DNA of 64,000 bases from Solirubrobacterales bacterium (lineage in GTDB: Bacteria > Actinomycetota > Thermoleophilia > Solirubrobacterales > 70-9), in assembly GCA_036257465.1 (NCBI GenBank), contig DATAFO010000036.1:13189-77188 (forward strand), written 5' to 3'. The position numbers and the translations under genes were made by a program. How positions within the stretch are numbered: the stretch's first letter is position 1; each line of letters opens with the position of its first letter. The notes under the pieces are model-generated. The model searched no databases. It saw only the letters and a list, made by a program, of their open reading frames with translations, and was not told the origin of the DNA. This document shows positions 12,603-42,670 of the stretch, one piece after another.

Positions 12603-13820
12603 ATGACGCGGCGAGTGGTCATTGTGGGTGGCGGTGTGGCCGGCCTGGAGGCGTTGATGGCGCTGCACGATCTGGCCGGGGATCGCGCCGAGATCACGCT
12701 CGTGGCGCCCGATCCCGACTTCGTCTACAAGCCGCTGATGGTGGAGGAGCCGTTCGACCTCGGCCCTGCGGAGCACCACGCGCTGGCGCCCTTGGCGGAG
12801 GAGCTCGGTGCTCGCTTGGTCCTGACGGCCGCGCGAAGCGTGCAACCGGACGAGCACACGGTGGCGCTCGCCGACGGCTCGAGGCTGGACTACGACTTTC
12901 TGGTGGTCTGTGTGGGCGGGCGCTTTCGTCCCTCCCTCGAGGGCGTGAGAACTTTTCCGTCGGGCGGCGAGCCGCTGCGAATCAACGAGATCGTGAACGG
13001 CCCGGACGGGCCCCGGCGGATCGCGTTCGTGGTGCCATCCGGAGTCACCTGGGCACTGCCGATCTACGAAGTTGCGCTGATGACGCAGCGGCGCGCCCTC
13101 GAGCTGGGTCGCGATGAGGTGGGGCTGGTCATCGTGACGCCCGAGGAGGCACCGCTGGCCCCGTTCGGACCCACGGCGAGCGCCGCGGTTGGGGAGCTAC
13201 TCGCTGGGCGTGGCATCGAGATCGAGCTCGGCGCTCACGTCCAGCACTGGGATGGGAGCGAGCTCGTCGTGGCCCCGGGCGACCGGCGCATCCAGGCTGA
13301 TGAGGTGATCGCGTTGGCGACGATGGACGGGCCCGAAATCGAAGGCCTGCCTATGGATTCGGCGGGCTTCATCCCGATCGACGAACACGCGCGGGTGGCC
13401 GGCGTGGAGGACGTCTACGCGGCCGGCGATGGCACGAACTTCCCGATCAAGCAGGGCGGGCTCGGCACTCAGCAGGCAGACGCCGCGGCCGCGCAAATCG
13501 CAGGTCGGCTCGGCGCCGCGATCACCGTGGAGCCGTTTCACCCGGTGCTCCGCGGCAAGCTTCTCACCGGGGAGGAGTCGCTTCACCTTCGTGCCGACGT
13601 GGGGGGTGGCGGGGGCATTGAGGAAGCCTCGCTCGACTGCCTGTGGTGGCCACCGCACAAGATCAGCGGCCGCTACCTCGCGCCGTTTCTCTACCACGGG
13701 GAGGTTCACGCAGAGCCCGAGCCGCCGCGAAGGTCTCTCGACGTCGAGGTCGCGCTTCCGGCCGAGTGGCATTCCGAGCCGCTGGCGCTTGACCCGTACA
13801 GAGCCCCGAAGATCGACTGA
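12603..13820 (+). CDS. FAD-dependent oxidoreductase, SQR/NDH-2 superfamily, lacking the SQR redox cysteines (paralogue A)
   Basis: VVIVGGGVAGLEA dinucleotide motif, DVYAAGDGTNFPIKQGGLGTQQA, and WWPPHKISGRYLAPFL. At the SQR Cys160-equivalent position it has PSGVTWALPIYE, with no Cys. Start is ATG 12603 inside the longer ORF. Confidence 0.8.
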   Translation: MTRRVVIVGGGVAGLEALMALHDLAGDRAEITLVAPDPDFVYKPLMVEEPFDLGPAEHHALAPLAEELGARLVLTAARSVQPDEHTVALADGSRLDYDFLVVCVGGRFRPSLEGVRTFPSGGEPLRINEIVNGPDGPRRIAFVVPSGVTWALPIYEVALMTQRRALELGRDEVGLVIVTPEEAPLAPFGPTASAAVGELLAGRGIEIELGAHVQHWDGSELVVAPGDRRIQADEVIALATMDGPEIEGLPMDSAGFIPIDEHARVAGVEDVYAAGDGTNFPIKQGGLGTQQADAAAAQIAGRLGAAITVEPFHPVLRGKLLTGEESLHLRADVGGGGGIEEASLDCLWWPPHKISGRYLAPFLYHGEVHAEPEPPRRSLDVEVALPAEWHSEPLALDPYRAPKID

Positions 13821-13837
13821 CGCGCGGGTGCCTGGAG

Positions 13838-15169
13838 CTAGCCTGCCGCTGCTCTCCATCGGCGTCGGCGCTCGGCATATGCCGGCGGGATGACCAGGTT
13901 CATCTCTTCGACCAGATCGAGCCACTCCAGCGCGCCGGCGACGTTTCCAAGCCGCGCATCTGAGTCCGCTACCGCGAGCGCGAATTCGACCGCGTCGCGG
14001 TGCTCCGCCTCCGATTCCACAGCCTCCTTGATGTCCTCCGGCGCCTCCTCCCGCTCGATGGGTGTGCGCTCGCGTCGTTTCGCGGCCAGGTACGGCCCGA
14101 GATAGCGCCCGGCGGCCTTGGCGGGCGCCCACCAGGTCGCCCCGACGTCCACATCGGCCGTCTCGAGCAAGAGCGGAACCGCGCCCGTGACGAGCGCGGC
14201 GCGGAGGTGCGGACGGAACCCCGCTGCGGCAACGTGGGCGCCGGCCGCGGCGGCAATCGCCTTCGCCGCCACCTCCGCCTGCTGGGCGGCCAGGCCTCCC
14301 TGCTTAATGGGAAACCAGGTCACGTCACCGGCCGCCCAGACACGGTCGAGCCCGGCAACGTGCATCCGGGTGTCGGTCGGGACGAAGCCGCGCCAGCGCT
14401 GGGGAAGCCCGGTGATCGTTGGAACCTCCGCTGCCGGCAGGGCGACGGCGTGGTCGGTCCGGATCGACCCTCCATCGGCGAGCCGAACCCTTCCGCTTTC
14501 GAACGAGGTCACGACGGCGGAGGTCTCGACGCCGACCCGCGTATCTCTCAGCAGTGCCCGCAGCGCCCGCGCCGGACCCGCGCCCATCATCTCCAACGGC
14601 TCGGCCTCGTGAGTGACCACCGCGATCTTGGCACTCGCGGGCGACCGCGCCTTCAGGTGAGACGCCGTCAGCAATGCAAGCTCGTACGCGGCGAGCGACC
14701 ATTTCACCTCTGGTGGCACCAGGAATGTCAGCCGCTTACCGGGATCGCGTCCAAGCTGTTCGAGGAGCGCGGCGAAGAACCCTCGTTCGCTGGGATCGCC
14801 AAAGGTGAGCGCTCCCGGCACCGCCCGTACGGGCCGGGTGCCTGTAGCCACCAGCAGCGCGTCGAACCGGATCCGGTCCCCCTCAGCGGTGGTCACCGTC
14901 CTGCCGGCGGCGTCCACGGAGGCGAGCGCGCCCTTGCGGAGCGAGGCGCGGTGTTCAGCGGTGACATCGGCGAGTTCGACGCGCTGAGCCTGTCCGATCC
15001 CGAAGGGTTCCGCCACGAACAGCGGTCGATGGACGAACTCCGGTTCGGGCGCGAGCAGCTGAATTCGTACGGTCTCGGGCGCCCGTGCCCGCAGTGTGAG
15101 CAACGCTTCCAATGCGGCGACCCCGCCACCAGCGATGACCACGTTGAAGGGTTCTTCGCGGTCGTCCAT
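13838..15169 (-). CDS. FAD-dependent oxidoreductase, SQR/NDH-2 superfamily, cysteine-free, with a C-terminal helical extension (paralogue B)
   Basis: VVIAGGGVAALEA, RVWAAGDVTWFPIKQGGLAAQQA, and WWAPAKAAGRYLGPYL. I found no Cys in the 443-aa translation. The extra tail is EAEHRDAVEFALAVADSDARLGNVAGALEWLDLVEE. Confidence 0.8.
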   Translation of the reverse strand: MDDREEPFNVVIAGGGVAALEALLTLRARAPETVRIQLLAPEPEFVHRPLFVAEPFGIGQAQRVELADVTAEHRASLRKGALASVDAAGRTVTTAEGDRIRFDALLVATGTRPVRAVPGALTFGDPSERGFFAALLEQLGRDPGKRLTFLVPPEVKWSLAAYELALLTASHLKARSPASAKIAVVTHEAEPLEMMGAGPARALRALLRDTRVGVETSAVVTSFESGRVRLADGGSIRTDHAVALPAAEVPTITGLPQRWRGFVPTDTRMHVAGLDRVWAAGDVTWFPIKQGGLAAQQAEVAAKAIAAAAGAHVAAAGFRPHLRAALVTGAVPLLLETADVDVGATWWAPAKAAGRYLGPYLAAKRRERTPIEREEAPEDIKEAVESEAEHRDAVEFALAVADSDARLGNVAGALEWLDLVEEMNLVIPPAYAERRRRWRAAAG

Positions 15170-15175
15170 CGCTGC

Positions 15176-16171
15176 TCAGACCACGGCCACGACGATCACA
15201 AGGTAAACGGCGATCGAGAGCAGGTCCTGAATGACGGTTGCGAGCGGCCCAGAACCAAAGGCTGGATCCAGGCCGAGGCGCTGTAAGGCGGCCGGTAAGG
15301 CCATCGCCACGAGGGTCGCGATCGAACAGCTCGCGAACATCGCCAGGGCCACCGCCAGCGCGACGTCTGCATCGCCCCAGCCGATCAGCGCGAAGACCAG
15401 AAACGCGGCTCCGATCACGATGCCCACCACCAGGCCTGTGACAACCTCACGGCGCAGCACGGAACGCACCGTGATCCCGGCGGCGAGCGCTCGGATCAAC
15501 ACGGTCTCGGTCTGAGTGCCGACGGCATCGGCCATGTAGACCACCGCGGGAATGAAGAACGCAAGCAGCACGTTTGCCTTGAGCTGCTCTTCGAAGCCGC
15601 CGACGATCGCGGTTGCCCCCATCGCGCCGAGCAGGCCGACGAGCAGCCAGGGCAAGCGATGCCACAGCCGCTGCGTGACCTGCTCCTCCGCAGCGCCGCG
15701 AGCGCGAGCGCTACCGGCCAGGTAGCCGCCAAGGCGCGCGAGGTCCTCATCGTGCTCGTTGAGCAACACCTGCAGCATCCGGTACGGGGGGATCAATCCC
15801 ACGAATAGGCCGTTGGCATCCACCACCGCCAGGCTGCACTCGTGACGCTTCACGATCTGACGGGCAGCGCGCTCCTGATCCGTCTCGGGACCCACGATGG
15901 GGGGGTCGGCGTCCATCACGTCCTCGACGCCGGCCTTGGGGTCAGCGGCCAGCAGGTGCTCGATCGAGATCAAGCCTACGAGCCTCCCTGCGTCGAGTAC
16001 GACGACATCCTCGGCGCATCGGAACTTGCGCCCTGCCAGCCCGTGCCTGACGTCCCCCACCGACTGGTCGCGCCGGGCAAAGGGCACGCTTCGGGTCGCA
16101 TACTCCGCCGCCACCCCTAGCAAGGCGTCGGGCTCGGACCGTTCCGCTGGTATCTCCAAGGAACCGGTCAT
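15176..16171 (-). CDS. mgtE: MgtE-type divalent cation transporter (CBS pair plus MgtE membrane domain, no N-domain)
   Basis: CBS-like [19 protein letters not shown] and [20 protein letters not shown], then the MgtE TM signature [19 protein letters not shown] and [12 protein letters not shown]. It lies 6 nt upstream of paralogue B on the same strand. Confidence 0.8.
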
Positions 16172-16240
16172 GGCGTTCCGCCGGAGTTTCCCGCATCAAC
16201 TCCGATTTGGCTCAGGCCACAGTCGCCTAGGGTTCGCCAC

Positions 16241-19341: not shown

Positions 19342-19384
19342 GCGCGGGAAGGCGCCAAATGGACTCCCAGGCGCGACTAGTAGC

Positions 19385-20158: not shown

Positions 20159-20256
20159 AGGCCGGCGCCTCCGGCGGTGCCCGGTCGCCCTCGACAGCTC
20201 CGACCGAGAGGGGGTGCGCGTACCGGGCCCGCGGCCGGGAGCTGCCGCTGAGCTGC

Positions 20257-20616: not shown

Positions 20617-21207
20617 GTGAACCTCGGCCAGGATCGCGACGTGCGACTGAGCTTCACACGCAAGCTGCCCCTGACCCAAGCGGCGCTCGAGTTCGCCGAG
20701 GCCCGCCACGCGCGACAGCGCCGTCTGGTCGACGATGCCGCGTTCCTGATGCATCCAGTCGAGGTCGCGTCTCTGCTCGAGCGCGGGGCAGACCCGGATC
20801 ACGTGGTCGCGGCCGCGGTCTGCACGACGTGCTGGAAGCCACCGACGCCGAGCGCTCCGACCTCGAGCAGCGATTCGGCCCTGCGGTCAGCGATCTCGTT
20901 GTGGCGGTCAGCGACGACCCGGCAATTCCCAATGAGGAGGCGCGCAAGGACGGGCTTCGCGGCCGCGTGCAGCGCGAGAGCGGATACGCCCTCGCGGTCT
21001 ACGCCGCCGACAAGATCTCGAAAGGTGCGCGAGCTCCGCGATCTGATGGCGAGCGAGGCTCAGCCCGCCGAGGCCGAGAGCAAGCTCGCGCGCCATCGTA
21101 GGTCGCTGGCAATGCTCGACCGGGAGCTTCCCGGCAGCCGGCTGGTAGAGCTGCTGCGGTTCGAGCTCGAGGCGCTCGACGTGTTGCCGCCTCACGGCGA
21201 GCGCTGA
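20617..21207 (+). pseudogene. HD-domain phosphohydrolase (RelA/SpoT-type (p)ppGpp-hydrolase-like) with two compensating frameshifts
   Basis: Homology runs across three frames. First frame: LPLTQAALEFAEARHARQRR..FLMHPVEVASLL..VVAAAV. Second frame: LHDVLEATDAERSDLEQRFGPAVSDLVVAVSDD...YAADKISK. Back in the first frame: VRELRDL...LELLRFELEAL. The shifts are at 20820/20821 (one base missing before CTG CAC GAC) and in the aaa run at 21021-21023 (one extra base). Confidence 0.65.
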
Positions 21208-21234: not shown

Positions 21235-21702
21235 CTATGCCGCCGCCCCGGCCTCACTCGGCTTCGAATCGCTCAGAAGCCGCGCGTCCGGTGGGATCAC
21301 CAGCACCGGATGGTGGGCGAGATGGAGCAGGCGTTGAGCGACGCTGCCCAGAACGACACCGAGGACGGATGAGTGGCCCCGCGTGCCGACGACGATCAGG
21401 TCGGCGTCCACCCGGTCGGCAATGTCCGCGATCCCGGACCCGGGGCCACCGGCGAAGATGGTCGCCTTCTCGACCCGGGTCTCGATCCCCTCCGACGAGA
21501 CCTCGGAAGCCTGGCGGTCGATCTCCGCCTGGATCTCGGGCTCATCCGGGTGGATCGGGCCGCCGCCCTTGCCGGCGATGTCCTGCTCGACGTGAGCGAT
21601 CACCAGCCTTGCGTCGTCCCGCCGGGCCAGCTCGACCGCGAAGTGCAACGCGCGCTTGGCGCCGTCCGATCCGTCCAGGCCGACGACGATCGTCTTGAAC
21701 AT
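21235..21702 (-). CDS. universal stress protein (UspA family)
   Basis: MFKTIVVGLDGSDGAKRAL and DADLIVVGTRGHSSVLGVVLGSVAQRLLHLAHHPVLVI (the G-2x-G-9x-G(S/T) ATP motif). It lies 14 nt downstream of paralogue C. Confidence 0.9.
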   Translation of the reverse strand: MFKTIVVGLDGSDGAKRALHFAVELARRDDARLVIAHVEQDIAGKGGGPIHPDEPEIQAEIDRQASEVSSEGIETRVEKATIFAGGPGSGIADIADRVDADLIVVGTRGHSSVLGVVLGSVAQRLLHLAHHPVLVIPPDARLLSDSKPSEAGAAA

Positions 21703-21716: not shown

Positions 21717-23105
21717 CTAGTACTTTGTGTCAGCCTCCCTGACAAGGCCCTGCCAGGAGATGCGCTTGAGCTCGTAGTCCGACGGGAGGTACAGCTCGAG
21801 GTCCTCGGCAACCTCCAGCCACCGAAGCGCCGCTCTGTGATCGCCCCAGCGCGCGTTCGCGTCGGCCGATGCAAGCGACATCTCGACCACATCCGCGTGG
21901 TCGGAGCCAATCGCCGCGGCGTCGTCTCCCACGGGGGGTTCGAGGTCGGTCAGGGGGCGGTCGGCCGGGATCGCATAGCCGGCCTTGGCGGCGAGGTAAG
22001 GAGCCAGGAGGCGGCCCGCGATCTTGGCCGGGGGCCACCACAAGACGCTCCGCGCGCCGACCGATGTGGCGTTGGGGCCCTCGACTTGGGCGCGGAAATA
22101 GCGTGGGCCCCATTCGGTCAGCAACGCACCGCGCAGGACGGGGCGAAACGGCTCAGGATCCACGGCCGCTCCCGCGAGTGCCGCGATCGCGCGGGCGGCG
22201 CAGTCGGCCTGCTGGGCCGCCAGGCCACCCTGCTTGATCGGAAACCAGGTCACGTCGCCCGCCGCGTACACGTCCTCGAGGTTGAGCACGCCGCAGTAAC
22301 GGTCGACCGGGATGAAGCCGTTCACCCTAGGGATTCCAGGGATCTCCGGCGCCTCGGGACGCGGCAACGCGACGACGCGGTCGCACTCGACCGCGCCGCC
22401 CGCGCTGAGCTCCAGCCGCCCGTCTTCAAATCGCCGCGGCGTGCGGCCCGCCAGAACCTCGATCCCGGCTTGGCGCAGCAGCTCCTCCACCGCCGCGCTG
22501 GCCCGGCTGCCGAAGATCGCGAGCGGGGACTTCTCGGGGGTGACGACCTTGATCTCGACATCCCCCGCCTCAGCGTTGGCGCGGGCGCTGGTCAACAGCG
22601 CCAGCTCGTAGAGCCCTAGGGGCCAGGACGAGTGATCGGGGACGGCGAAGGCGACGCTGCGGATCGCCCCTCGCTCGAGCTCGCCCAGCACCGCGCGGAA
22701 GCCGCCCTGGTCGCGCGAGTCCCTGAAGGTGAGCGCCCCTGGAATCGCCACCAGGGATCGCGCGCCGGTGGCGATCAAGAGTGCGTCGTAGTCGAACTCC
22801 CGCGCGCCGGCCGTGCGGACGAGCCGTCGATCGGGCTCCACCGCCTCAAGAGCATCCTCGAGGAACGTCGCGTGGTGCTCGAGCGCGATCTCGCGTAGAT
22901 CGACCTCCCGCGGGGTCGAAAGCTCGAACGGCTCAGTGACTGACAGCGGCCGGTGGTGGAACGCGGGATCGGGCGCGAACAGGACCGTCGCCACACGATC
23001 GGGGCCGAACTCGCGCAGCGCCAAGAGCGCTTCGAGTGCGGCCACGCCGCCGCCTGCGATCAGGACCCTGAAGCGATCGCGATCGGCTCCCTCCGTGAGC
23101 GCCAT
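21717..23105 (-). CDS. FAD-dependent oxidoreductase, SQR/NDH-2 superfamily, lacking the SQR redox cysteines, with a C-terminal helical extension (paralogue C)
   Basis: VLIAGGGVAALEA, DVYAAGDVTWFPIKQGGLAAQQA, and WWPPAKIAGRLLAPYL. PDHSSWPLGLYE replaces the Cys motif. The tail SDHADVVEMSLASADANARWGDHRAALRWLEVAED aligns with paralogue B. Confidence 0.85.
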   Translation of the reverse strand: MALTEGADRDRFRVLIAGGGVAALEALLALREFGPDRVATVLFAPDPAFHHRPLSVTEPFELSTPREVDLREIALEHHATFLEDALEAVEPDRRLVRTAGAREFDYDALLIATGARSLVAIPGALTFRDSRDQGGFRAVLGELERGAIRSVAFAVPDHSSWPLGLYELALLTSARANAEAGDVEIKVVTPEKSPLAIFGSRASAAVEELLRQAGIEVLAGRTPRRFEDGRLELSAGGAVECDRVVALPRPEAPEIPGIPRVNGFIPVDRYCGVLNLEDVYAAGDVTWFPIKQGGLAAQQADCAARAIAALAGAAVDPEPFRPVLRGALLTEWGPRYFRAQVEGPNATSVGARSVLWWPPAKIAGRLLAPYLAAKAGYAIPADRPLTDLEPPVGDDAAAIGSDHADVVEMSLASADANARWGDHRAALRWLEVAEDLELYLPSDYELKRISWQGLVREADTKY

Positions 23106-23128: not shown

Positions 23129-23377
23129 TCAGAAGCCTCGGGTTTCGCGCAGGCGCTGCGCCTCGCGGAGGGACTCGTCATCCCCGCGGTCCCTCGCGGC
23201 GCGTCGGCTGCGAATCGCGTGCACGACGTAAGCGCAGGCGAGGACCGCGGCCGGGATCGTGAAGTAGAGCACCTCGCCGGGCGAGTAGACCCCCATGATC
23301 AGGCCGAAGACATAGAAGCCCAGATAGGCGAGAACGGCGAGCCACAGGATGGTCTCGAGTCGATCGTGCAGGTTCAT
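23129..23377 (-). CDS. small two-TM membrane protein, family copy 1
   Basis: MNLHDRLETILWLAVLAYLGFYVFGLIMG...IPAAVLACAYVVHAI...ESLREAQRLRETRGF. There is a purine-rich SD (gggagagggg) before ATG 23377. Homologous copies are at 42677-42798 and 54981-55166. It lies directly upstream of paralogue C. Confidence 0.6.
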   Translation of the reverse strand: MNLHDRLETILWLAVLAYLGFYVFGLIMGVYSPGEVLYFTIPAAVLACAYVVHAIRSRRAARDRGDDESLREAQRLRETRGF

Positions 23378-23556
23378 CAGCTTCCCCTCTCCCACATCTC
23401 ACCCCTCACGGTACGGTGGCAAGCAAGACCCGCCATCGGGAGAAAGTGCGAGACCAGCCTCCGTAGCCGCCACCGAGAAAGTGCGCCCAGTGGCCTCAGG
23501 CAGGCGGTCAGACATAGTTTCGAGACGGACAACGACCTCAATCGAGGGGAGCGCTC

Positions 23557-23977: not shown

Positions 23978-24412
23978 ATGAAGCGTGAGGCCGCGCTCAC
24001 CGACCTCTCCCGCGACCATCATCAGGCGCTCTACCAGGCGATGCGAATGAAGCGGGCGGACGAAGCCGGCCTCAGCGAGGTCCGAGACGACGTGCTCTCG
24101 TTCTGGCGCGAGCACGGCGCGGTGCACTTCCGGATCGAGGAGGAGATCCTGCTCCCGGCCTACGCGACGGTCGGGGACCCCGCCGACGAGGCCGTCGTCC
24201 GGGTACTGGTTGATCACGTCTGGATCCGGGAGCGGATGGAGCGTCTCGAGTCGGGCGAGCTCGGCGTCCTCGAAGTGCACGAGCTCGGCGATCGGCTCGA
24301 GCGACACGTGCGCCACGAGGAGCGGGTGCTGTTTCCGCTGGTGGAGGACGCGCTCGACCCCGTGGCGCTCGCGGCTCTGGGCGAGCGAATCGCCGCCGCC
24401 GAAGCCCGCTAG
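23978..24412 (+). CDS. hemerythrin (HHE cation-binding) domain protein
   Basis: LSRDHHQAL..., HFRIEEEILLP and HVRHEERVLFPLVE give the His/Glu ligand pattern of hemerythrin-like di-iron domains. It lies 36 nt upstream of qNOR. Confidence 0.85.
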   Translation: MKREAALTDLSRDHHQALYQAMRMKRADEAGLSEVRDDVLSFWREHGAVHFRIEEEILLPAYATVGDPADEAVVRVLVDHVWIRERMERLESGELGVLEVHELGDRLERHVRHEERVLFPLVEDALDPVALAALGERIAAAEAR

Positions 24413-24448
24413 CAACCGGGCGGCTCATTTCATAGGATCGGCTCCGGG

Positions 24449-26761
24449 ATGCCGGAGGCGACCGAGCGTAGGGGACTCCTGGTTTCGAAGGCCTGGCTTC
24501 AGGTCTCGATCGTCGTCTTTCTGATCGGCTTCTTCGTCCTCGGGCTGCTCGCGTACCGCACCTACAGCGCCGACCCGCCGATCCCGGAGCGGGTGGTCGA
24601 TCCGGACGGGCAGACGCTGTTCACCGGCGACGACATCCGCGAGGGACAGCAAACGTTCCTCGACAACGGGCTCATGGAGTACGGCTCGATCTTCGGCCAC
24701 GGCGCCTATCTCGGCCCCGACTACACGTCCGACTACCTGCATCGCGCCGCGCAGTCGGTCGAGGGCCAGTACGGGGGAGCGGGCTCGGACCGGGCGCGCG
24801 AACAGACGATCGCCGACTTCCAGACGAACCGGTACGACTCCGACACCGAGACGCTCGAGTTCACCGCCGCTCAGGCGCGGGCGCATGGCGAGCTCGTCGA
24901 GCACTACAGCGAGTTCTTCGACCACCCAACGACCGAGTTCGGGCTGCGTCCCGACGCGATCTCCAACCCGGAGAAGGCCCGTGAGCTGACCGCGTTCTTC
25001 GGCTGGTCGGCCTGGGCGGCCTCAGCGCGCAGGCCGGGTCACAACTACTCCTACACCAACAACTGGCCGCCCGAGCCACTGGTCGACAACGGCCCGACCG
25101 CGAACGTGCTGCTGTGGAGCGTCGTCTCGCTCGTGGCGTTGCTGGGCGGGATCGGCCTGCTGTTCGCCGCCTTCGGGCGCTGGAACTTCCTCGGGTGGCA
25201 CGGACGCGAGCAGGCGACGCTCACCTTCCGGCGTCCGGGAGACGTCGCGCTCACCCCCGCCCAACGTGCGTGCGCCTGGTTCTTCCTCGTGATGGCCGCG
25301 CTGTTCTTGATCCAGACGATGGTGGGTGCCGCCTCGCAGCACTACCGAGCGGAGCTGGGCGACTTCTTCGGGATTGACCTCGCCGAGCTGCTCCCCTTCA
25401 ACCTCGCCCGCACGTTCCACGTCCAGCTGGCGATCTTCTTCGTCTCCACGTCCTTTCTCGCCGCTGGGATCTTCCTGGCGCCGATGATCGCTGGACGCGA
25501 GCCGCGCCGGCAGCACTGGCTTGCCTACGGCCTGCTCGCCGCGCTCGCGATCGTTGTCTTCGGCAGCCTGATCGGTGAGTTCGGCGGCATCCACGGCTGG
25601 TTCGGCGACGACGGCTCGATCTTCGGCCTCCAGGGCTTCGAATACCTGGACCTGGGCCGTTTCTGGCAGGTGCTGCTGGCCCTCGGGCTGTTCTTCTGGG
25701 CGGCGCTGATCTTCCGGGGTGTCCGCGGCCGTCTGGCCCGCGAGCACAAGGGCAACCTTCCGTGGCTGTTCTTCTTCGCCGCCCTGGCGATCCCGGCCTT
25801 TTACGCGGTCGGGCTGCTGGCGCGGTCGGGCGACAGCTTCACCGTCACCGACTTCTGGCGCTTCTGGGTCGTCCACCTCTGGGTCGAGGACTTCCTGGAG
25901 CTGTTCACGACCGTGATGGTCGCCTACATCTTCGTTCTGCTCGGAGTCGTGCGGGAGCGGGTGGCGCTCACCGTCGTCTTCCTGGACATCCTCCTGTACT
26001 CGGTTGGGGGAGTGATCGGGACCATGCATCACCTCTACTTCTCCGGAGAGCCCGCCGAGCACATGGCGCTCGGAGCGGTCTTCTCCGCCGCGGAGGTGAT
26101 CCCGCTGACGTTCCTCACGGTCGAGGCGTGGAGCTTCCTGCAGCTCGGCTCGCGGCAGGAGTCGCGCTCGGCGACTCCGTTCCCGCATCGCTGGGCAGTG
26201 ATGTTCCTGGTGGCGGTCGGGTTCTGGAACTTCCTCGGAGCCGGGATCTTCGGATTCTTGATCAACCTGCCGATCGTCTCCTACTACGAGATCGGAACGG
26301 CGCTGACCGCCAACCACGGACACGCCGCGATGATGGGGGTGTACGGAATGCTCGCGGTCGGGCTGGCGCTATTTTGCCTCCGATATCTGATCCCCGCCGA
26401 GCGCTGGCCGGACCGCGCGGCGAAGTGGAGCTTCTGGTCGCTCAACATCGGGCTCGCCTGGATGACCTTCGCGACCCTGTTCCCGCTGGGGCTGATCCAG
26501 CTGTACGAGTCAGTCGACGCAGGCTACTTCGAGGCGCGATCGCTCGAGTTCCTGACCAACGACACGAACTCGCTGATCGAGTGGATGCGATTCCCGGGCG
26601 ACATCGTGTTCATCGTCGGCGGCGTGGTGCCACTGCTCTACATCTGCTGGCTCGGCGTGCGCCATCGGGTGCGCCGCGAGACGCTCGAGGTGCCCGAGGA
26701 CATCCTGTTCACCGAGATTACGGCGCCGGCGCCCGAGGCGACCGCGGCGGTCGAGCGATGA
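24449..26761 (+). CDS. norZ: quinol-dependent nitric oxide reductase (qNOR, heme-copper oxidase superfamily)
   Basis: 770 aa. It has an N-terminal TM helix plus a periplasmic extension (GQQTFLDNGLMEYGSIFGHGAYLGPDYT). The 12-TM NorB core follows, with FWRFWVVHLWVEDFLELF, GTMHHLYF and NHGHAAMMGVYG histidine ligands. Confidence 0.93.
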   Translation: MPEATERRGLLVSKAWLQVSIVVFLIGFFVLGLLAYRTYSADPPIPERVVDPDGQTLFTGDDIREGQQTFLDNGLMEYGSIFGHGAYLGPDYTSDYLHRAAQSVEGQYGGAGSDRAREQTIADFQTNRYDSDTETLEFTAAQARAHGELVEHYSEFFDHPTTEFGLRPDAISNPEKARELTAFFGWSAWAASARRPGHNYSYTNNWPPEPLVDNGPTANVLLWSVVSLVALLGGIGLLFAAFGRWNFLGWHGREQATLTFRRPGDVALTPAQRACAWFFLVMAALFLIQTMVGAASQHYRAELGDFFGIDLAELLPFNLARTFHVQLAIFFVSTSFLAAGIFLAPMIAGREPRRQHWLAYGLLAALAIVVFGSLIGEFGGIHGWFGDDGSIFGLQGFEYLDLGRFWQVLLALGLFFWAALIFRGVRGRLAREHKGNLPWLFFFAALAIPAFYAVGLLARSGDSFTVTDFWRFWVVHLWVEDFLELFTTVMVAYIFVLLGVVRERVALTVVFLDILLYSVGGVIGTMHHLYFSGEPAEHMALGAVFSAAEVIPLTFLTVEAWSFLQLGSRQESRSATPFPHRWAVMFLVAVGFWNFLGAGIFGFLINLPIVSYYEIGTALTANHGHAAMMGVYGMLAVGLALFCLRYLIPAERWPDRAAKWSFWSLNIGLAWMTFATLFPLGLIQLYESVDAGYFEARSLEFLTNDTNSLIEWMRFPGDIVFIVGGVVPLLYICWLGVRHRVRRETLEVPEDILFTEITAPAPEATAAVER

Positions 26762-27339
26762 GCGGCGAGGCGTTGCTGATCTGCGCGTACGCGCTGTTCC
26801 TGCTCGCCGCCGCGCTGGGACTGGACCGCCTCGCGCGGCACTCACACCGCCGCAGCGAGCGCTACCGCACGGCCGGCTTTGAGTTCCGAGCGGACCTCGA
26901 CGTCTGGGAATGTCCGGAGGGTGAGTTCCTGCGCCGCATCGACACGGATCACGTCCGGCGCCTCGTGCGCTACCGCGCACGTGCCGCCGTCTGCAACGCG
27001 TGTCCCGCGAAGGCCGAGTGCACCGACTCCGACCACGGTCGCGAACTCGTGCACTCTCTTGATCCCTGGCCACATTCCGAGGCGGGCCGCTTTCACCGCG
27101 GCATCTGCGTCGTCCTGGCGGTGCTCGCCGCTCTGCTCGCGGCCGTTGGGCTTGCCCGCAGCTCCGGAGCCGCCGAGGTGCTAGCGCTTGCAACCACCCT
27201 CGCCATGTCGATCGCCTTGGCAAGCCGCCTGCTCGCCTCGTTCCGCCGCACGCCGAGCGGGTTCGCGGGTGCAGCCGTGCCCGATGCGATCGCGGCGATC
27301 CCCGAGGAGCGCTCGCCCGCGGCGCAGCTACGCCGGTAG
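26758..27339 (+). CDS. uncharacterised membrane protein with a Cys4 motif, translationally coupled to qNOR
   Basis: The ATG overlaps the qNOR stop (ATGA). The N-terminal TM is ALLICAYALFLLAAALGL. The soluble part is WECPEGEF...AAVCNACPAKAEC. Two C-terminal TMs follow. No family assigned. Confidence 0.6.
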   Translation: MSGEALLICAYALFLLAAALGLDRLARHSHRRSERYRTAGFEFRADLDVWECPEGEFLRRIDTDHVRRLVRYRARAAVCNACPAKAECTDSDHGRELVHSLDPWPHSEAGRFHRGICVVLAVLAALLAAVGLARSSGAAEVLALATTLAMSIALASRLLASFRRTPSGFAGAAVPDAIAAIPEERSPAAQLRR

Positions 27340-31327: not shown

Positions 31328-31469
31328 GCGGACCTGCGCCGCATACGCGCGGCGGCGGCCTCACAGGAATTCCGCACCTACCGCGCTCCGAACTCCGGAC
31401 TTTCTACCGATGGAGTCAGGGGGCTTCGGTGGTTCCCTTGGACACTGACTGGCGACGAAGGGACTTGCG

Positions 31470-33008
31470 ATGGCCACCGTCGAGAAGACCACCTACGAGG
31501 CACCCGGACAGCCCGGGAGTCCCGTTGAGCTGAAGGAGCGCTACGACAACTTCATCGGCGGCCACTGGGTCGTCCCCTCGAGCGGCGAGTACCGCGACAA
31601 CCTCGCGCCCGCCACCGGAGAGGCGTTCTGCGAGGTGGCGAACTCGACCCCGGAGGACATCGAGCTCGCACTCGACGCCGCCCACGCCGCCAAGGACGGC
31701 TGGGGCGAGGCTTCGGTCACCGAGCGCTCGGCCGTGCTGAACCGCATGGCCGACGCGATCGAGGAGAACCTGGAGATGCTCGCTGTGGCGGAGAGCTGGG
31801 AGAACGGCAAGCCGGTGCGCGAGACGCTCGCCGCCGACCTGCCGCTGGCGATCGACCACTTGCGTTACTTCGCCGGCGTCATCCGCGGCGAGGAGGGGGC
31901 GATCTCCGAGCTCGACAAGGACACCGTGGCCTACCACTTCCGCGAGCCGCTCGGGGTCGTGGGGCAGATCATCCCGTTCAACTTCCCGCTCTTGATGGCG
32001 GCCTGGAAGATCGCCCCAGCCCTCGCGGCTGGCAACTGCACCGTCGTCAAGCCGGCCAGCCCGACGCCGTGGTCCATCCTCAAGCTCGCCGAGGTGGTCG
32101 AGGACGTCGTCCCGCCGGGAGTGCTGAACGTCGTCAACGGCCCTGGGGCGGAGATCGGCAAGGCGCTGGCCTCCAACAAGCGGATCGCCAAGATCGCCTT
32201 CACCGGCGAGACCGTGACCGGGCGGCTGATCATGTCCTACGCCGCCCAGAACATCATCCCTTCGACCACGGAGCTCGGAGGCAAGTCTCCGAACATCTTC
32301 TTCGAGGACGTGACGGCGACCGACGACGAGTTCCTCGACAAGGCGGTCGAGGGGCTGGTCCTATACGCCTTTAACAAAGGCGAGGTGTGCACCTGTCCCT
32401 CGCGGGCCCTGATCCAGGAGTCGATCTACGACGAGTTCATCGGTCGCGTGCTCGACCACATCAAGGCGATCAAGCAGGGCCACCCGCTCGATCGCGAAAC
32501 GATGATCGGCCCGCAGGTCTCACAGGCCCAGCTGGAGAAGATCGAGGGCTACGTCCAGATCGGCGTCGACGAGGGCGCGGAGGTGCTGATCGGCGGTCAG
32601 CGTCCTGATCTCAACGGAGAACTGGCCGGCGGCTACTACTTCGAGCCGACGGCGCTCAAGGGCTCGAACGACATGAGGGTCTTCCAGGAGGAGATCTTCG
32701 GCCCGGTCGTAGCGGTGACGACGTTCGCCGACGAGCGCGAGGCGCTCGAGATCGCGAACGACACCCTTTATGGTCTCGGCGCCGGTGTGTGGACCCGAGA
32801 CGGTTCTCGCGCCTACAGGATGGGCCGGGGGATCAAGGCCGGGCGAGTGTGGACCAACTGCTAACACCAGTATCCGGCCCACGCCGCGTTCGGCGGCTAC
32901 AAGGTCTCGGGAGTCGGCCGCGAGACGCACAAGATGATGCTCGACCACTACTCGCAGACCAAGTGCCTGCTGGTCAGCTACGACCCGAAGCCACTCGGCT
33001 TCTTCTGA
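31470..33008 (+). pseudogene. NAD-dependent aldehyde dehydrogenase interrupted by an in-frame TAA 48 codons before the normal end
   Basis: [20 protein letters not shown] and [11 protein letters not shown] (catalytic Cys) are present. Reading continues in the same frame across TAA 32862-32864: [53 protein letters not shown]. This is the conserved ALDH C-terminus, where Tyr (TAC) is expected at the stop. Confidence 0.85.
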
Positions 33009-36483: not shown

Positions 36484-36568
36484 GCACGCGGGCATCCGTG
36501 CCGACACCGGTTCCAGTTCAGTAGCAGCCACCGATGTCCGCAGATGAGGCCGGTCGTAGGGTGCGGTC

Positions 36569-37431: not shown

Positions 37432-37462
37432 CCACCTAGCCGACGAGAGACCGAGGCCAAGG

Positions 37463-37741: not shown

Positions 37742-37752
37742 TTTTCCGCTCA

Positions 37753-38987
37753 TCAGATCGGCGCGATGCCCCGCTTGCGGGTCGCGAGGAAGTAGCGCTC
37801 GAACGCGACCTTCGCCCAGTGCGCCTGGGGGCCCCACATCACCCGCGGGTGCTGCGAGTCGCCCAACACGTGGTCGGCCTTGAAGATCACACCGCTGCTG
37901 CCCGCGTCGAGGATGCAGATCGCGGGGAGGTCGGAGAGCGGCTGCCGGCGGCGCTCGCCTCCCTGAAGGTCGGCGGCGACGTTTTGCGCCGCGACCTCCG
38001 CCATGAGCTCGCTCATCTGGCCGGTCTTGGGTGCACCGGCGGGAACCGGCGTCGCCTCGGGCGGCGCGGTGGCGACGTCGACGCCCGCGGCGTAGACGTC
38101 GGGGATCTCGGGATGGCTGAACTCGTCAGTGACGGGGATGAAGCCAAGCTCGTTCGCGAGCCCCTCGGCCCCCCGCACTACGTCGAGCCCAGTGAACGGG
38201 GGCACGATCATCGAGAAAGCAAACGGCAGCACCCGCCCGCCCTCGAGCTCGATCTCCGCCTCGCGGACCTCGCGGATGCCGCTGTTCGGGATCCCGTCGA
38301 TCCCCCAGCAGTCGAAGCACCGCCGGACCGCCCCGCTCGAGTCCCCTACGCCGCCAAGGCCGAAGTGCCCGAGGTACGGCTCCGCGGTGATGAAGGTCAC
38401 CGGTGCGACGTCCTCGAGCCCCGCCTTGCGAATCCGGTGGCGAACGTTGATCAGGAACTCGTACGAGGCGCCGAAGCAGGAGCCGCCCTCTGCAGTGCCG
38501 ATCACCACTGGCCCGGGGTCAGTGAGGAACCGCTGCCATTCGTCCCGCGCCGCGAGCGCGTGCTCGAGGTTGCACACCGACGCCGTGTGGCCGCCGTCCG
38601 GCCCCAGACCGCGGATCCGGTCGAACGCCAGGCGCGGCCGGTGGCGAGCAGTAGCCGGTCGTAGCCGATCTCCTCGGCGCGCGCGGTGAACACGGTGCGC
38701 GAGTCGAGGTCGAGCCGGATGGCGGCCTGGTTCAGGAAGCGGATTCCCTTGCGCTGGTACACCGGCGCCAGCGCGAACGTGATCTCCCCGGGCTCGCGCA
38801 GTCGGAGCGGGAGCCAGATCAGCGAGGGGATGAAGGTGAAGTTCGCGTGCGGATCAAGCACCACGACCTCGTGGTGCGGATCGAGCCGCCGGCGGAGCTC
38901 GAGGGCGGCCGTCAGCCCGGCGAAGCTCGAACCCACGACAACCGCTCGCTTGGCGCGGCTGGACGAACCGTCGAGCAGAGCCATCAT
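37753..38987 (-). pseudogene. sqr: sulfide:quinone oxidoreductase with a single 1-nt frameshift
   Basis: The N-terminal frame reads RAVVVGSSFAGLTAALEL...FIPSLIWLP...YDRLLLATG. It then switches frame to PRLAFDRIRGLGPDGGHTASVCNLEHA...GGSCFGASYEF...DVYAAGD...PKTGQM...AICILDAG. All three SQR-type Cys contexts are present. One C is missing at about 38636-38641, and the length of 1235 nt is not divisible by 3. Confidence 0.8.
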
Positions 38988-41092
38988 GCGTGCCCGAAGC
39001 GCACGTCGGGCAGGAACCGGTCAAGCCAGGCGGGCAGCCACCAGGCCCATCGTCCCGCGACCCGCAGCAGCACCGGGACCAGGATGAGCCGGACCAGGAG
39101 CGCGTCGAGGAGCACGGCGACGCCGAGGATCACGCCCATCTCCTTCGGCGGCAGCGGCCCGGAGAGAGCGAAGGTGAAGAAGACGGCGACCATGACTGCC
39201 GCAGCCGCGAGGATCACGCGACCAGAGTGGGCCAGGCCGCCGACCACCGCCTCGCGCTGATCGCCCGAGCGGTCCCAGTGCTCCTTGGCCGAACTGAGCA
39301 GGAAGACCGTGTAGTCCATCGTGATCGCGAAGATCAGCGCGAAGAAGAACACCGGCGCCCAAGCGTCGACGAACCCCTGCGAGGTAAAGCCGAGCAGCCC
39401 CTCGAAGTTGCCGTCCTGGAAGATCAGCTTGCCGGCGCCGAACGCCGCGCCCGTGGCCAGCAGGCTGGTGAGGACCCCAAACGCGGCGACAATCGGAGCC
39501 TGCAGCGCGACCAGGAGGAGGAGGAAGCCGAGTGCGATGACGACTCCGATCACCAGCGGCGTCTTGCTGGCGAGCTCCTGCTCGAGATCGTGGTTCTCGG
39601 CCACAGCGCCGCCGACCAGCGCCCCGGCGGGGAGCACCGATCGCAGCCGCTCGATCGTCGAGCCCACGGCTGGGTTTGAAGGGTCCTGCGTCGGGATCGC
39701 CTGGATCAGCGCCGTCTGAGTTACGCCCTGCTGCGGCGGCACGACCTGGGCGATTCCGGGGTCGGCCGCCACGGTCGCCGCGACCGAGTGGGCCTCGTTG
39801 CTGCCGGCGACGACCTGCAGCGCGCCCGGTGCGCCGGGCCCGAACGCGTCCTGGACGGCGACATAACCCTGACGAGAGGAATCATCAGCGGGCACGACCT
39901 TGATCGAGGGCATTCCCGTGTCGAGCGCGAGCACGGGGAATGCCAGAGCCACGAGGACCGCGAGCGTAGGGCCCCCGTAGCGAACGGGGTGACGCCAAAG
40001 GCGCTCTCCCCAGGCGGCGAACCGCGGCGAGCGGTGCTCGCCCGAGTGCACCCAGGGCAGCGCGAGCCGGTCGAGACGCGGCCCGAGCTTGGCGAGAACG
40101 GCCGGAAGCAGTGTGAGGGTTGCGGCCATCACGAAGACGACCGAGAGCATGATTCCGAGCGCCACCGAGCGGAAGGCAGGGCTCGGCACCAGCATCACCG
40201 CGCTCAGCGAGATCAGCACGGTGAGTCCCGAGAACAGCACCGCCTTGCCGGCGGTGTCCATCGTCACCGCGACGGCCTCGGCGGCTGGCCGGCGATCGCC
40301 GAAGAACGCGCCGCGGAAGCGATAGACGACGAACAGCGCGTAGTCGATGCCGAGCGCGAGCGCGAACATGAGCGCGAAGTTCATCGCCCAGATCGAGATG
40401 TCGGTGATCTGAGCGCCCACGTAAAGCATCCCCGCGGCACACACGAGCCCGAGGATCGTGAGCAGGAGCGGGAGCCCGGCAGCGACCAGTGAGCCGAACG
40501 CCAGCACCAGGATCGCCAGGGTCACGGGCCAGGAGATCAGCTCCGACTTCAGCATCGCGCTCTTGTTCGCTTCGTTGAAGTCCGACCACATGCCGGAGGC
40601 GCCGGTCAGGTTCACCTGCACGTCAGCCGTGCCCGCCGCCGCGAGGTCGGACTTGATCTCGTCGGCAACCCGCACCATCTGGTTCGGGTCGGCACCGGCA
40701 CCCGCCTGGATCACGGCGGTGCGACCGTCACGCGAGATCGAGACGCCCTCGCGCGGGTGAGCGATCGAGGCCACGTCCTGCTCGACGAGCAGCCGGTGCT
40801 CGACGTCGCGCACCACGCCGGTGAAGCCGGGATCGTCGAAGGCGAGCTCGTCGGAGCTGACGACGATCAAGAGGCTGCTGGAGGAGAGCCCCTCGAACTC
40901 CGCCTCCACGCGATCACGGGCCTCAACCGACTCGGATCCGGTGGCGTGCCAGCCGGCTCCGGAAAGCGCGTGCTCGACGCGGGGTGCGAGGAACCCCAGC
41001 ACCACGGCGGTCGCCAGCCACGCCAACGCAACCGCCTGGACGTGGGTCGCGGACCAGTGGCCGAGCCGCCCGATGGGACCCAGCGCGCTCAC
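38984..41092 (-). CDS. MMPL-family (RND superfamily) membrane transporter
   Basis: About 700 aa with two 6-TM bundles, each after a soluble loop. Motifs include AMLKSELISWPVTLAILVLAFGSLVAAGLPL, IDYALFVVYRFR, and a second repeat ITMDYTVFLLSSAKE. The start is taken at GTG 41092, which overlaps the upstream stop (GTGA). Confidence 0.85.
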   Translation of the reverse strand: MSALGPIGRLGHWSATHVQAVALAWLATAVVLGFLAPRVEHALSGAGWHATGSESVEARDRVEAEFEGLSSSSLLIVVSSDELAFDDPGFTGVVRDVEHRLLVEQDVASIAHPREGVSISRDGRTAVIQAGAGADPNQMVRVADEIKSDLAAAGTADVQVNLTGASGMWSDFNEANKSAMLKSELISWPVTLAILVLAFGSLVAAGLPLLLTILGLVCAAGMLYVGAQITDISIWAMNFALMFALALGIDYALFVVYRFRGAFFGDRRPAAEAVAVTMDTAGKAVLFSGLTVLISLSAVMLVPSPAFRSVALGIMLSVVFVMAATLTLLPAVLAKLGPRLDRLALPWVHSGEHRSPRFAAWGERLWRHPVRYGGPTLAVLVALAFPVLALDTGMPSIKVVPADDSSRQGYVAVQDAFGPGAPGALQVVAGSNEAHSVAATVAADPGIAQVVPPQQGVTQTALIQAIPTQDPSNPAVGSTIERLRSVLPAGALVGGAVAENHDLEQELASKTPLVIGVVIALGFLLLLVALQAPIVAAFGVLTSLLATGAAFGAGKLIFQDGNFEGLLGFTSQGFVDAWAPVFFFALIFAITMDYTVFLLSSAKEHWDRSGDQREAVVGGLAHSGRVILAAAAVMVAVFFTFALSGPLPPKEMGVILGVAVLLDALLVRLILVPVLLRVAGRWAWWLPAWLDRFLPDVRFGHA

Positions 41093-41334
41093 GTGGAGGT
41101 CCCGTATGCGGAGCGCCGGCCGAAGGCGCGCTCGAGGATCAGCGAGGCGGGGCAGGCCCCGGTCAGCACATAAAGCCACTGGTTGACGCCCACGAACGCC
41201 GTCAGCGCCAGGAACCAGGGCGAGACGACCAACGCCAGGGCGACGCTCAGCAGCGTCATCGTGCCGGCCAGGGCGAACAGCACCCGCTCGAGCGGCCAGC
41301 GGCCGCGCCATGTGCACGAGGGCTCAACTGTCAT
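41089..41334 (-). CDS. DUF2892 (YgaP-like) small membrane protein
   Basis: WPLERVLFALAGTMTLLSVAL...FVGVNQWLYVLTGACPASLIL fits the DUF2892 two-helix pattern with the conserved G.CP. 81 aa. Confidence 0.7.
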   Translation of the reverse strand: MTVEPSCTWRGRWPLERVLFALAGTMTLLSVALALVVSPWFLALTAFVGVNQWLYVLTGACPASLILERAFGRRSAYGTST

Positions 41335-41696
41335 CGCGCGGTCCCCTCCGCGATCACCGCATCCAGTTCCGCAAGCTGTCTGCGGAGACCACCGCAGACC
41401 TCCTCGCAGAGGCGAAAGACGCTCTCGTCCGCGACGGAGTAGTGGGCGAAGTTCCCCTCCTGACGGCGGCCGACGAAGCCCGCGTCTAGCAGCACCCGCA
41501 GGTGCTTGGACACGTTCTGCTGCGAGCTCGACGTTGCCGCGACGAGCTCGCCGACCGTGGCGTCCCCCTCTCGCAGGCGATCGAGGAGCTTGATCCGCAT
41601 CGGCTCGGCGAGAACCCGAAAGCGCTCCGCGATCAGCTCGACCAGGGGTTCGGGAAGCGGATGACTGAGCGTCGTGACGGCGGTCATGGAGCGCAC
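41331..41696 (-). CDS. ArsR/SmtB-family transcriptional regulator
   Basis: ERFRVLAEPMRIKLLDRLREGDATVGELVAATSSSQQNVSKHLRVLLDAGFVGRRQEGNFAHYSV is the winged-HTH ArsR signature. C-terminal cysteines occur in RLCEEVCGG. Confidence 0.9.
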   Translation of the reverse strand: MRSMTAVTTLSHPLPEPLVELIAERFRVLAEPMRIKLLDRLREGDATVGELVAATSSSQQNVSKHLRVLLDAGFVGRRQEGNFAHYSVADESVFRLCEEVCGGLRRQLAELDAVIAEGTAR

Positions 41697-41701
41697 TATA
41701 G

Positions 41702-41727
41702 CACAACTACACTACTGTGTGGTTGTG
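41702..41727. promoter_or_regulatory. candidate ArsR operator: AT-rich imperfect palindrome
   Basis: cacaactacac-tact-gtgtggttgtg (10 of 11 complementary positions), located 6 nt upstream of the arsR start codon in a locally AT-rich patch. Confidence 0.45.
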
Positions 41728-41758
41728 TACTGCGCGCGACGGAGACGGGCATGAGGAG

Positions 41759-42670
41759 TCACCTCGCGAGTACCTTGGCCAACCCCTTCAGCCCGACCTC
41801 CATTCCGTTCCAGAAGAGCCCGGCATGGAACGGTCGACCACTGCTGAACCGCCACGGCACAGACATCCCGAGCATCCTCTTGCCCGCCCGCCACGCCTTC
41901 GAAGACCCGACCCGGTAGTCATCGCCAGCGTCGGGTCGAACCTCGACGGGTCGCGCCCGATCCCCGGTGATGCGCAACCCTGGGAAGGGAGTCGACGCGA
42001 TGTAGGGAGGGAAGGCGACGAGCAGGTCGGCGCAGATCGGCGCCGAGCTCCTCGGTACGCGGTCCGCGGCTGCCTTCGATCCCGTCAGCATGTGCATGCG
42101 CACGATCTCGTACAGCGGCCCCGCGCACTTGTTGTTCGGTGGCACCAGGAACAGCACGCGCCGCCGCTTGCCCAGCCCAGCCGCAGTCACGAGCTCGGCG
42201 AAAGCGCTTCGATCGAGCATGTCCTCGGGCGTCCAGGTGCTGATCGCGTACTGGTCGAGGCCGGAACGTCCTCGGCCTGCATGCCAGCGCCGGTCGCAAC
42301 CACAAGGAAGTCGTAATGCAGCGCACGGCCGTCGGCGACAACCCGGCGGGCATCTGGATCGATCTCGTGTGCGCGAGCGCCCACGAGCGCGATGCCTCTA
42401 CGTCCGACGATTTCGCGGGCGGCACCCGGAGCCGTTCAGGGTCGAGACCGAACGGCACGTAGATCGAGTTCGGCTTGAAGAGAAAGTGGTCTTGGTCGGA
42501 GACCAGCGTGATCTGCGCACCCTCGCCGGCAAGTCTGCGCAGGTTGAAGGCGGCCTCGAGTCCGCCGAAGCCCCCGCCAGGGACGACGACGCGGGCCGCG
42601 GCGCGACCACGCGAACAGGCGCCTCGCCGCTCACGCGACAGCCGACATGCGGAGCGCGCCTACCGGCCAT
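41759..42670 (-). pseudogene. decayed SQR-like flavoprotein gene (at least 3 frameshifts plus an internal deletion)
   Basis: Homology hops between frames. The segments are RVVVPGGGFGGLEAAFNL...FLFKPNSIYVPFGLDPERL, then REIVGRRGIALVGARAHEID...HYDFLVVATGAG, then GLDQYAISTWTPEDML...RRVLFLVPPNNKCAGPLYEIV. Shifts are near 42590-42610, 42420 and 42258-42264. About 70-80 residues are missing between the KCAGP motif and DLLVAFPP. Confidence 0.7.

Follow-up and report, generated by a model that had tools for sequence, protein, structure and literature searches.

A cysteine-free flavoprotein family with a predicted sulfide:quinone oxidoreductase fold and a DosS/DosT-linked genomic setting in Thermoleophilia

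The DNA analysed here, a 64-kb stretch of high-GC actinobacterial sequence from a Solirubrobacterales contig (DATAFO010000036.1), is referred to below as the window, and all coordinates are window positions. It contains five genes related to sulfide:quinone oxidoreductase (SQR). Three of these, A, B and C, are intact open reading frames (ORFs) that lack the redox cysteines of SQR; the other two, D and E, belong to cysteine-bearing types and are disrupted. The best explanation as a whole casts A, B and C as flavoenzymes of a hypoxia/nitric oxide (NO) dormancy response that work without thiols and are not sulfide oxidisers, with the decay of D and E unrelated, and we give this account about an even chance of being correct. 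What is new here is a predicted family of cysteine-less flavoproteins of the SQR fold and its DosS/DosT-linked setting, which is moderately surprising; no description of cysteine-less SQR homologues was found in the literature or in curated families.

Gene A (12603..13820, + strand) encodes a short form of 405 aa and ends a PGI-HAD-A gene string. The products of B (13838..15169, − strand; 443 aa) and C (21717..23105, − strand; 462 aa) are long forms, the former with a C-terminal helical domain and the latter encoded within a smallTM-C-USP string, smallTM being the gene of a small membrane protein. Gene calls by JGI on an independent contig (L001) give the same lengths for all three. Their Pfam match is Pyr_redox_2 (5.8e-22 for A) and they share 36–46% identity pairwise. 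The preliminary description of these genes is borne out, in that the ORFs are intact where it placed them, every motif that it quoted is present and B has no cysteine at all. Compared with their orthologues, A, B and C have ratios of nonsynonymous to synonymous substitution (dN/dS) of 0.18, 0.27 and 0.37, respectively, and all three genes are under purifying selection. Orthologues of A and C on a sister contig, L084, are 77% and 71% identical to them, respectively. No match to C was found among 72,556 plasmids searched by tblastn.

Fold, family and active-site residues

A, B and C each carry the N-terminal GxGxxG and GD motifs of the SQR fold, with 'GGGVAALE' and 'AAGD' invariant, and are predicted to be intact FAD proteins of that fold. 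The redox cysteine pair of SQR is absent from them and is found both in D, when its reading frame is repaired, and in the intact relatives of E (E-type proteins). A profile of the family matched, in the PDB, the type V SQR of Acidianus ambivalens (3H8L) at 8e-18, the SQR of Aquifex aeolicus (3HYV) at 3e-17, that of A. ferrooxidans at ~1e-15 and NDH-2 at ~1e-9. When an AF2 model of C (pLDDT 83) was compared with known structures in Foldseek, the Aquifex and A. ferrooxidans SQRs came first (best E 1.5e-21, TM 0.62–0.69), with AIF, Ndi1, NDH-2 (1e-18) and FCSD below them. The best NCBIfam matches of A, B and C, SQR_III_seleno (NF049943) and TIGR03169, score 40–64 bits, below the cut-offs of 525 and 310.

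The preliminary description left room for catalytic cysteines at shifted positions, or for membership of NDH-2, and neither was found. The cysteines of A (Cys103 and Cys346) and of C (Cys241, Cys271 and Cys302) all lie away from the SQR redox positions. The proteins are not NDH-2: the second GxGxxG motif, for NAD(P)H, is absent from the domain 2 loop of A, B and C, which reads 'F(A/V)VPxxxxW(P/A/S)LxxYE', the profile scores are 1e-17 for SQR and 1e-9 for NDH-2, and Foldseek places the SQRs first. The best PDB match of A is the Aquifex SQR, and the segment 'GVTWALPIYE' of A aligns with its 'GVSCFGPAYE', so that Aquifex Cys156 corresponds to a Trp in A. A selenocysteine at this position was considered and ruled out by the TGG codon in intact ORFs and by the invariance of the Trp.

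Conservation was assessed in 119 close and 152 diverse members of the family, with residues numbered as in C. Trp161, at the position of the first redox cysteine (Cys1), is found in every aligned member of both sets (there is one gap in the diverse set), and Tyr166 and Glu167, the YE motif that follows, are essentially invariant. Across both sets the second redox cysteine (Cys2) is replaced by Gly or Ala preceded by Arg; this residue, Arg325, is present in 119/119 close and 144/152 diverse proteins. The preliminary description was right that cysteine is missing from this last position (its third-cysteine position), while the Gly/Ala that follows the invariant Arg, and not the next residue along, is the likeliest replacement for it. 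Lys361 is conserved in 119/119 and 145/152 proteins, Lys291 is likewise invariant, and Trp356 and Trp357, which form a WW pair before Lys361 that is new relative to SQR, occur family-wide. No column of the diverse alignment has cysteine in more than 14% of the proteins, and 27 of the 152 have no cysteine at all. Cys128, His132 and His198 of the A. ferrooxidans SQR also have no counterpart in A, B or C. Since both redox cysteines are missing, the known SQR mechanism is closed to these proteins, as had been proposed at the outset.

The quinone site and the C-terminal tail are altered as well. The quinone-site Lys of SQR is kept as Lys361, and the stacking Phe three residues further on is Gly or Ala, invariant or nearly so. 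We take the SQR residues in question to be Lys391 and Phe394 in A. ferrooxidans and Lys382 and Phe385 in Aquifex, a mapping made from the alignments and the published structures. The net charge of the tail is 0 in short forms and −5 in long forms, compared with +6 in E-type proteins, and the family tails are less amphipathic. It is predicted that the cationic amphipathic membrane tail is lost and that a neutral tail (A) or an acidic three-helix domain (B and C) stands instead. The three-helix domain is present in about one-third of the members, B and C included, and this helical extension matches no Pfam domain.

Alignment of the family with the E-type proteins, which have both cysteines, by hhalign gave a probability of 100 and an E-value of 2e-41 over 361 columns at 28% identity, with Trp161 over their Cys1, Gly326 over their Cys2 and Arg325 over a Met. 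The comparison shows the cysteine-free branch as a predicted derivative of 2-Cys SQRs of the Acidianus type and a sister group to the E-type proteins. The family resembles the Acidianus and E-type SQRs in the FAD motifs, the 'YE' after Cys1, 'FP(I/V)KQ' and a W..(K)K before the tail; it differs from them in having Trp and Gly/Ala for the redox cysteines, in having gained an Arg beside the former Cys2 and in the predicted loss of the cationic tail. From type I SQR (A. ferrooxidans, 3T2Z/3SZ0; Aquifex aeolicus, 3HYV) it is more distant. The fold is alike and the equivalent of Lys391/Lys382 is kept as Lys361, but the identity of A, B and C to these enzymes is ~16–20%, Cys128, Cys160, Cys356, His132 and His198 are gone and the Phe394/Phe385 position is Gly/Ala; in this window it is D that is the true orthologue of type I SQR, though frameshifted. 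FCSD has a flavin subunit of the same fold, also soluble and not membrane-bound, but it keeps a redox disulfide and a cytochrome c subunit, whereas no cytochrome gene is conserved beside the family.

More than 7,800 relatives of C were found at E ≤ 1e-5, chiefly in soil metagenomes, where their automatic JGI name is 'sulfide:quinone oxidoreductase'. When 1.84 billion cluster representatives (50%-identity clusters) were searched with a profile, 1,867 matched at E ≤ 1e-30; this number sets a ceiling on the size of the family, since sister clades may be among the matches. Matches in genomes are almost all from Thermoleophilia, in the Solirubrobacterales and Gaiellales. On these sequence comparisons, A, B and C are members of a large, distinct and uncharacterised family of predicted FAD proteins that is centred on the Thermoleophilia and has several copies per genome.

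Genomic setting and candidate operators

The neighbours of family genes were clustered over 79 related genome loci (L005–L083), using crude ORF calls, so that the counts given here are approximate. A response regulator of the NarL/LuxR type is present in 38 of the 79 and lies within 300 bp in 25; USP genes occur in 26, and a kinase of domain order GAF-GAF-HisKA_3-HATPase in 23. Further neighbours are Pat/ACS, P-type ATPase, acetate kinase, NirK, PPDK, Zn-ADH, PPK2 and WS/DGAT genes. At least two family genes are found in 16 loci, several of them directly in tandem, and two proteins (P0070 and P0109) are head-to-tail fused doubles with the Trp in both halves. In P0309, P0328, P0289 and P0365 the family is fused instead to a CBS pair at the C-terminus, to a USP at the N-terminus, to DUF5335 or to the N-terminal domain of PPDK. 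Some of the fused proteins, the doubles included, may be gene-call mergers.

The sister contig L084 is an example. An ArsR / YgaP-like / MMPL string is followed there by OsmC and an intact E-type gene (L084:6738-11296), then by the A orthologue (−), the response regulator (+), the kinase (−), the B orthologue (+), smallTM and the C orthologue, so that the A orthologue is divergent to the regulator and the B orthologue to the kinase. The GAF-A domain of this kinase matches DosT of M. tuberculosis (2VZW) at 2.5e-46, with DevS/DosS also matched; the regulator matches DevR at 1e-28, about equally with NarL and VraR. The family is thus associated with a DosS/DosT-like kinase and a NarL-type regulator in relatives and not within the window itself. 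The settings of the two sister groups differ, the family lying beside DosS/T-type two-component and stress genes and the E-type beside ArsR, YgaP-like, MMPL and OsmC genes. The preliminary description had called the function of the cysteine-free branch unknown; the context counts narrow this to loci of the DosS/DosT type with stress and dormancy genes.

The regions upstream of 90 family genes were scanned for k-mers. The heptamer AACTACG/CGTAGTT occurs in 23 of the 90, where ~2 would be expected, and mostly near −90. In some cases the box is an inverted repeat (ACTACG-N10-11-CGTAGT), and there is an extended form, CGTAGTT-NN-CCGC; examples are at L032:9898, L048:9898, L075:9904, L064:8507, L084:19640-19680 and L084:20500-20540. 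In 1.44 Mb there are 34 copies of a 13-mer, CGTAGTTNNC[CT][GA]C, which also precedes Pat/ACS, P-type ATPase, USP and PPK2 genes. The AACTACG box is a candidate, predicted site of a DosR-like regulator of the Thermoleophilia, unlike the mycobacterial Dev box. A literature search for an oxidoreductase of the OsdR regulon gave nothing relevant.

In the window each paralogue has a different string: PGI-HAD-A, (CBS-)MgtE-B and smallTM-C-USP. The CBS-MgtE gene (15176-16171) is 6 bp upstream of B, and the USP gene (21235..21702, − strand; Pfam Usp in the JGI gene call) is 14 bp downstream of C. Directly upstream of C, smallTM (23129..23377, − strand) encodes an 82-aa protein with no Pfam match, with the motif 'WLAVLAYLGFYVFGLIMG...RLRETRGF' and a dN/dS of 0.36, whose orthologue precedes the C orthologue in L084. 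It was considered as a conserved partner of the family and rejected, being present in one of the 79 loci in addition to L084. A perfect palindrome, CGGAGTT-N9-AACTCCG, lies at 16182..16204 in the promoter region from which MgtE-B and bPGM-GH65 diverge; a 'CTACGGAG'-like site is found at ~23455-23470, ~85 bp upstream of smallTM-C, and a similar repeat at ~31385-31420, upstream of the aldehyde dehydrogenase gene. The palindrome and the two other sites are related to the AACTACG box; they may constitute a shared operator and are offered as candidates and leads only.

The surroundings in the window include genes for beta-phosphoglucomutase, a GH65 phosphorylase, hemerythrin, a quinol-type NO reductase (qNOR), GAPDH, an aldehyde dehydrogenase with DUF779, CBS proteins, a Pat-like ADP-forming acyl-CoA synthetase/acetyltransferase, DUF5661 and WS/DGAT. 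At 23978-26761 (+ strand), divergent from smallTM-C-USP, the hemerythrin-domain gene lies directly upstream of the qNOR gene (NorB, with an N-terminal cytochrome-c-like domain), a pair that resembles norA-norB. The end of the qNOR gene is overlapped by a 193-aa ORF (26758-27339, + strand) with a sub-threshold match to DDE_Tnp_1_6 (6e-5), which may be the remnant of a mobile element at a rearrangement point. The aldehyde dehydrogenase gene has a polymorphic stop codon (32862-32864): a single-nucleotide polymorphism (SNP) in L001, 32864 A>C, extends the protein from 464 to 512 aa towards the DUF779 gene.

Proposed function and alternatives

In the explanation that we favour, A, B and C have retained the FAD motifs, the YE motif and the quinone-site Lys of an SQR ancestor, while the sulfide site has been dismantled and, as predicted from the sequence, rebuilt with Trp, Arg, Glu and Tyr. 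Within this Trp/Arg/Glu/Tyr pocket the flavin would meet the substrate and react with it directly, and electrons would be exchanged with menaquinone or another common carrier. The tandem pairs and fused doubles make it probable that the proteins are homo- or heterodimers. Their synthesis would belong to a hypoxia/NO/CO stress regulon of the DosS/DosT-DosR type, and their role would be redox balancing in dormancy and not the detoxification of sulfide.

A number of observations weigh against this explanation, most of them concerning regulation. The 64-kb window contains no DosRS-like system (a DosR-like regulator with a GAF kinase) and no tandem USP. No single partner gene is conserved beside the family across the 79 loci, and where a two-component system is present it is mostly convergent or divergent to the family gene and seldom in an operon with it, so that adjacency shows neighbourhood and not regulation. 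The AACTACG box stands upstream of only about one-quarter of the family genes, and its match in the window is degenerate. The Dev box of M. tuberculosis and Streptomyces (core GGGNC-N4-GNCCC) is found in 1 of the 90 upstream regions, which is the control rate, and in the window it has 1 match where 5.3 would be expected. As regards the chemistry, Gly/Ala stands in place of the Phe on which quinone stacks in SQR and the membrane tail is predicted to be lost, so that coupling of A, B and C to quinone is possible but doubtful.

A bolder version is that the cysteine-free clade would be a new class of flavoenzyme in which the thiol chemistry of SQR is swapped for a Trp/Arg/Glu pocket, carrying out an undescribed reaction central to hypoxic/NO persistence under DosRS-type control through an operator of the ACTACGGAG type. 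The proteins might act as a soluble electron sink or as a flavin co-sensor of the DosS/T system, or carry out a reaction related to N-oxides or O2. We regard this version as tentative and on the whole rather unlikely to be right.

It is unlikely that the proteins are NDH-2-like NAD(P)H:quinone oxidoreductases, analogues or homologues of Rv1812c that re-oxidise NAD(P)H in hypoxia. Rv1812c is a member of the DosR regulon of M. tuberculosis and is called 'NADH dehydrogenase-like' in the literature, and the dormancy-type context of the family parallels it; no partner protein is required, the superfamily is held in common and NDH-2 structures were matched. The likeness to NDH-2 and Rv1812c therefore extends to the superfamily with two dinucleotide-binding domains, to chemistry independent of cysteine and to a hypoxic setting, Rv1812c being compared by its name in the literature and by context. 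However, the family lacks the NAD(P)H GxGxxG motif, and in the loop that stands there ('AVPxxxxWPLGLYE') an invariant Trp occupies the would-be position of the NADH pyrophosphate. The similarity to NDH-2 is also weaker than that to SQR, in the profile search (1e-9 against 1e-17) and in the fold comparison (1e-18 against 1e-21), and no membrane-anchoring tail is predicted.

An equally improbable alternative is that the proteins serve as redox sensors by means of their flavin, or as accessory proteins, and pass the state of the quinone pool or of O2 to the DosS/T-like kinase and its regulator. The response regulator is the commonest neighbour of the family and the sensor kinase is also common, the fusions are to regulatory modules (CBS and USP), the acidic C-terminal helical domain could serve protein contacts, and the invariant Trp on the substrate face could shut the active site. 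Yet half of the loci are without a two-component system within 10 kb, as is the window, there are several paralogues per genome in unrelated operons, and Glu167, Arg325, Lys291 and Lys361, which look catalytic, are invariant.

The third alternative, to which we give little credence, retains reduced-sulfur chemistry, either with an external thiol (a low-molecular-weight thiol or persulfide, or the cysteine of a partner such as OsmC) or by direct reaction of sulfide with the flavin. The nearest relatives are indeed SQRs, the YE motif after the former Cys1 is retained, and the sulfur-related ArsR / YgaP-like / MMPL string lies in the same region of the window. Against these stand the loss of all five catalytic-site Cys and His residues of the A. 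ferrooxidans SQR, the lack of any conserved thiol-protein partner nearby, the absence of sulfur-metabolism genes and of D- or E-type genes from all 79 loci, and a setting that is one of hypoxia and stress and not of sulfur.

The disrupted cysteine-bearing genes and implications

D (37753..38987, − strand) is a type I SQR pseudogene and the final gene of an ArsR / YgaP-like / MMPL / SQR string. Its coding sequence is split between two overlapping ORFs that differ in frame and meet at 'LLLATG|PRLAFD', as would result if one base had been lost from a GGCC run at ~38636-38639. When repaired, D aligns over its full length with the A. ferrooxidans SQR (4e-86, ~50% identity) with Cys128, Cys160 and Cys356 all matched, which identifies it as a type I SQR. 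Upstream of D are the genes for an ArsR-family regulator (41331-41696, − strand; a 121-aa ORF), a YgaP-like transmembrane protein (41089-41334, − strand) and an MMPL transporter (38984-41092, − strand), the stop of the last being overlapped by the start of D. An MMPL transporter is unusual in what looks like a sulfide/persulfide-responsive operon.

E (41759..42670, − strand) is a decayed 2-Cys, Acidianus-like SQR gene with two frameshifts and two large internal deletions. The preliminary description located it correctly, except that the coding remnant begins near 42593 and not at 42670. The remnants lie in three frames, at 42420-42593, 42262-42399, 42101-42262, 41972-42028 and 41762-41968. By comparison with intact relatives ~40 codons are gone after 'PLYEIV', and the second deletion, of ~85 codons, has taken the GD FAD motif and the second Cys. 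These relatives are Solirubrobacterales proteins of 413–440 aa with 'PPNNKCAGPLYE' and 'DPVSMCVMEQ', and the E-type proteins are nearest to the Acidianus ambivalens SQR (7e-29). The remnants still give a dN/dS of 0.21 against an intact relative, so the inactivation of D and E was recent relative to that divergence. Upstream of E is a decayed paralogue of smallTM (42631..42798, − strand), in which the N-terminus 'FWLAILAYLGFYVYGLIM' and the C-terminus '...QRLRETRGF*' are in different frames. The density of SNPs and indels is raised over the E remnant (41731-42061), and a 15-bp indel relative to L004 is found at 44396-44410, just upstream of the WS/DGAT gene (42795-44309).

Two other JGI metagenome assemblies (L003 and L004) are 99.4–99.8% identical to the window, from which they differ at 22 and 47 places. 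The frameshift of D and the structure of E are identical in both, with no indel at the D junction, and the N-terminal fragment of D (161 aa) is called identically on these contigs, which come from two other JGI samples. Lesions that recur in spite of SNPs between the assemblies cannot be put down to assembly noise, and those in E are far too large for sequencing error. The reading frames are reproducibly disrupted and under relaxed constraint, and D and E are true pseudogenes. That D, or D and E together, only appear broken through an artefact and that a canonical SQR is intact is hardly credible: D does carry a single lesion, the loss of 1 nt in a short GGCC run, but the frameshift is common to three assemblies from different samples, 7 of the 8 SNPs in the 3′ fragment beyond it are nonsynonymous, E is without more than 120 codons, and among 5.8 billion protein clusters no near-identical intact protein was found, the best intact homologue of D being 76% identical. 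The claim that both cysteine-bearing genes are inactivated therefore holds. The further claim of the preliminary description, that the lineage is losing canonical sulfide oxidation, is supported only in part and is unproven, as only 64 kb are visible, an unrelated gene is also broken and L084 keeps an intact E-type gene.

This unrelated gene encodes an HD-domain protein (20617-21207, + strand; weak Pfam HD_4, like a RelA/SpoT-type hydrolase). It has frameshifts at ~20820 and ~21020, with no indel differences from the independent JGI contig L001, and is a third pseudogene locus in the window; gene decay here is therefore not specific to SQR. Nor is the cysteine-free family a replacement for SQR in relatives, because in L084 an intact E-type gene accompanies the orthologues of A, B and C, and D- or E-type genes are found within 10 kb of family genes in none of the 79 loci. 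An obligatory partnership of dead and active subunits was also considered and is ruled out by this last count. The co-occurrence of intact cysteine-free genes and broken cysteine-bearing genes is probably a coincidence in this population and not a trade-off, and there is probably no link between the decay of D and E and the retention of the three intact genes.

The automatic label 'sulfide:quinone oxidoreductase' on thousands of these proteins has a consequence for soil metagenomes: since the proteins so labelled cannot perform the SQR reaction, inferences of sulfur cycling by Thermoleophilia would be inflated. The family would also offer a natural experiment in rebuilding the site of a thiol-based flavoenzyme. 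Being large, conserved and linked to DosS/DosT, it may serve as an entry point to the survival of O2 limitation by abundant and poorly cultured soil Actinobacteria.

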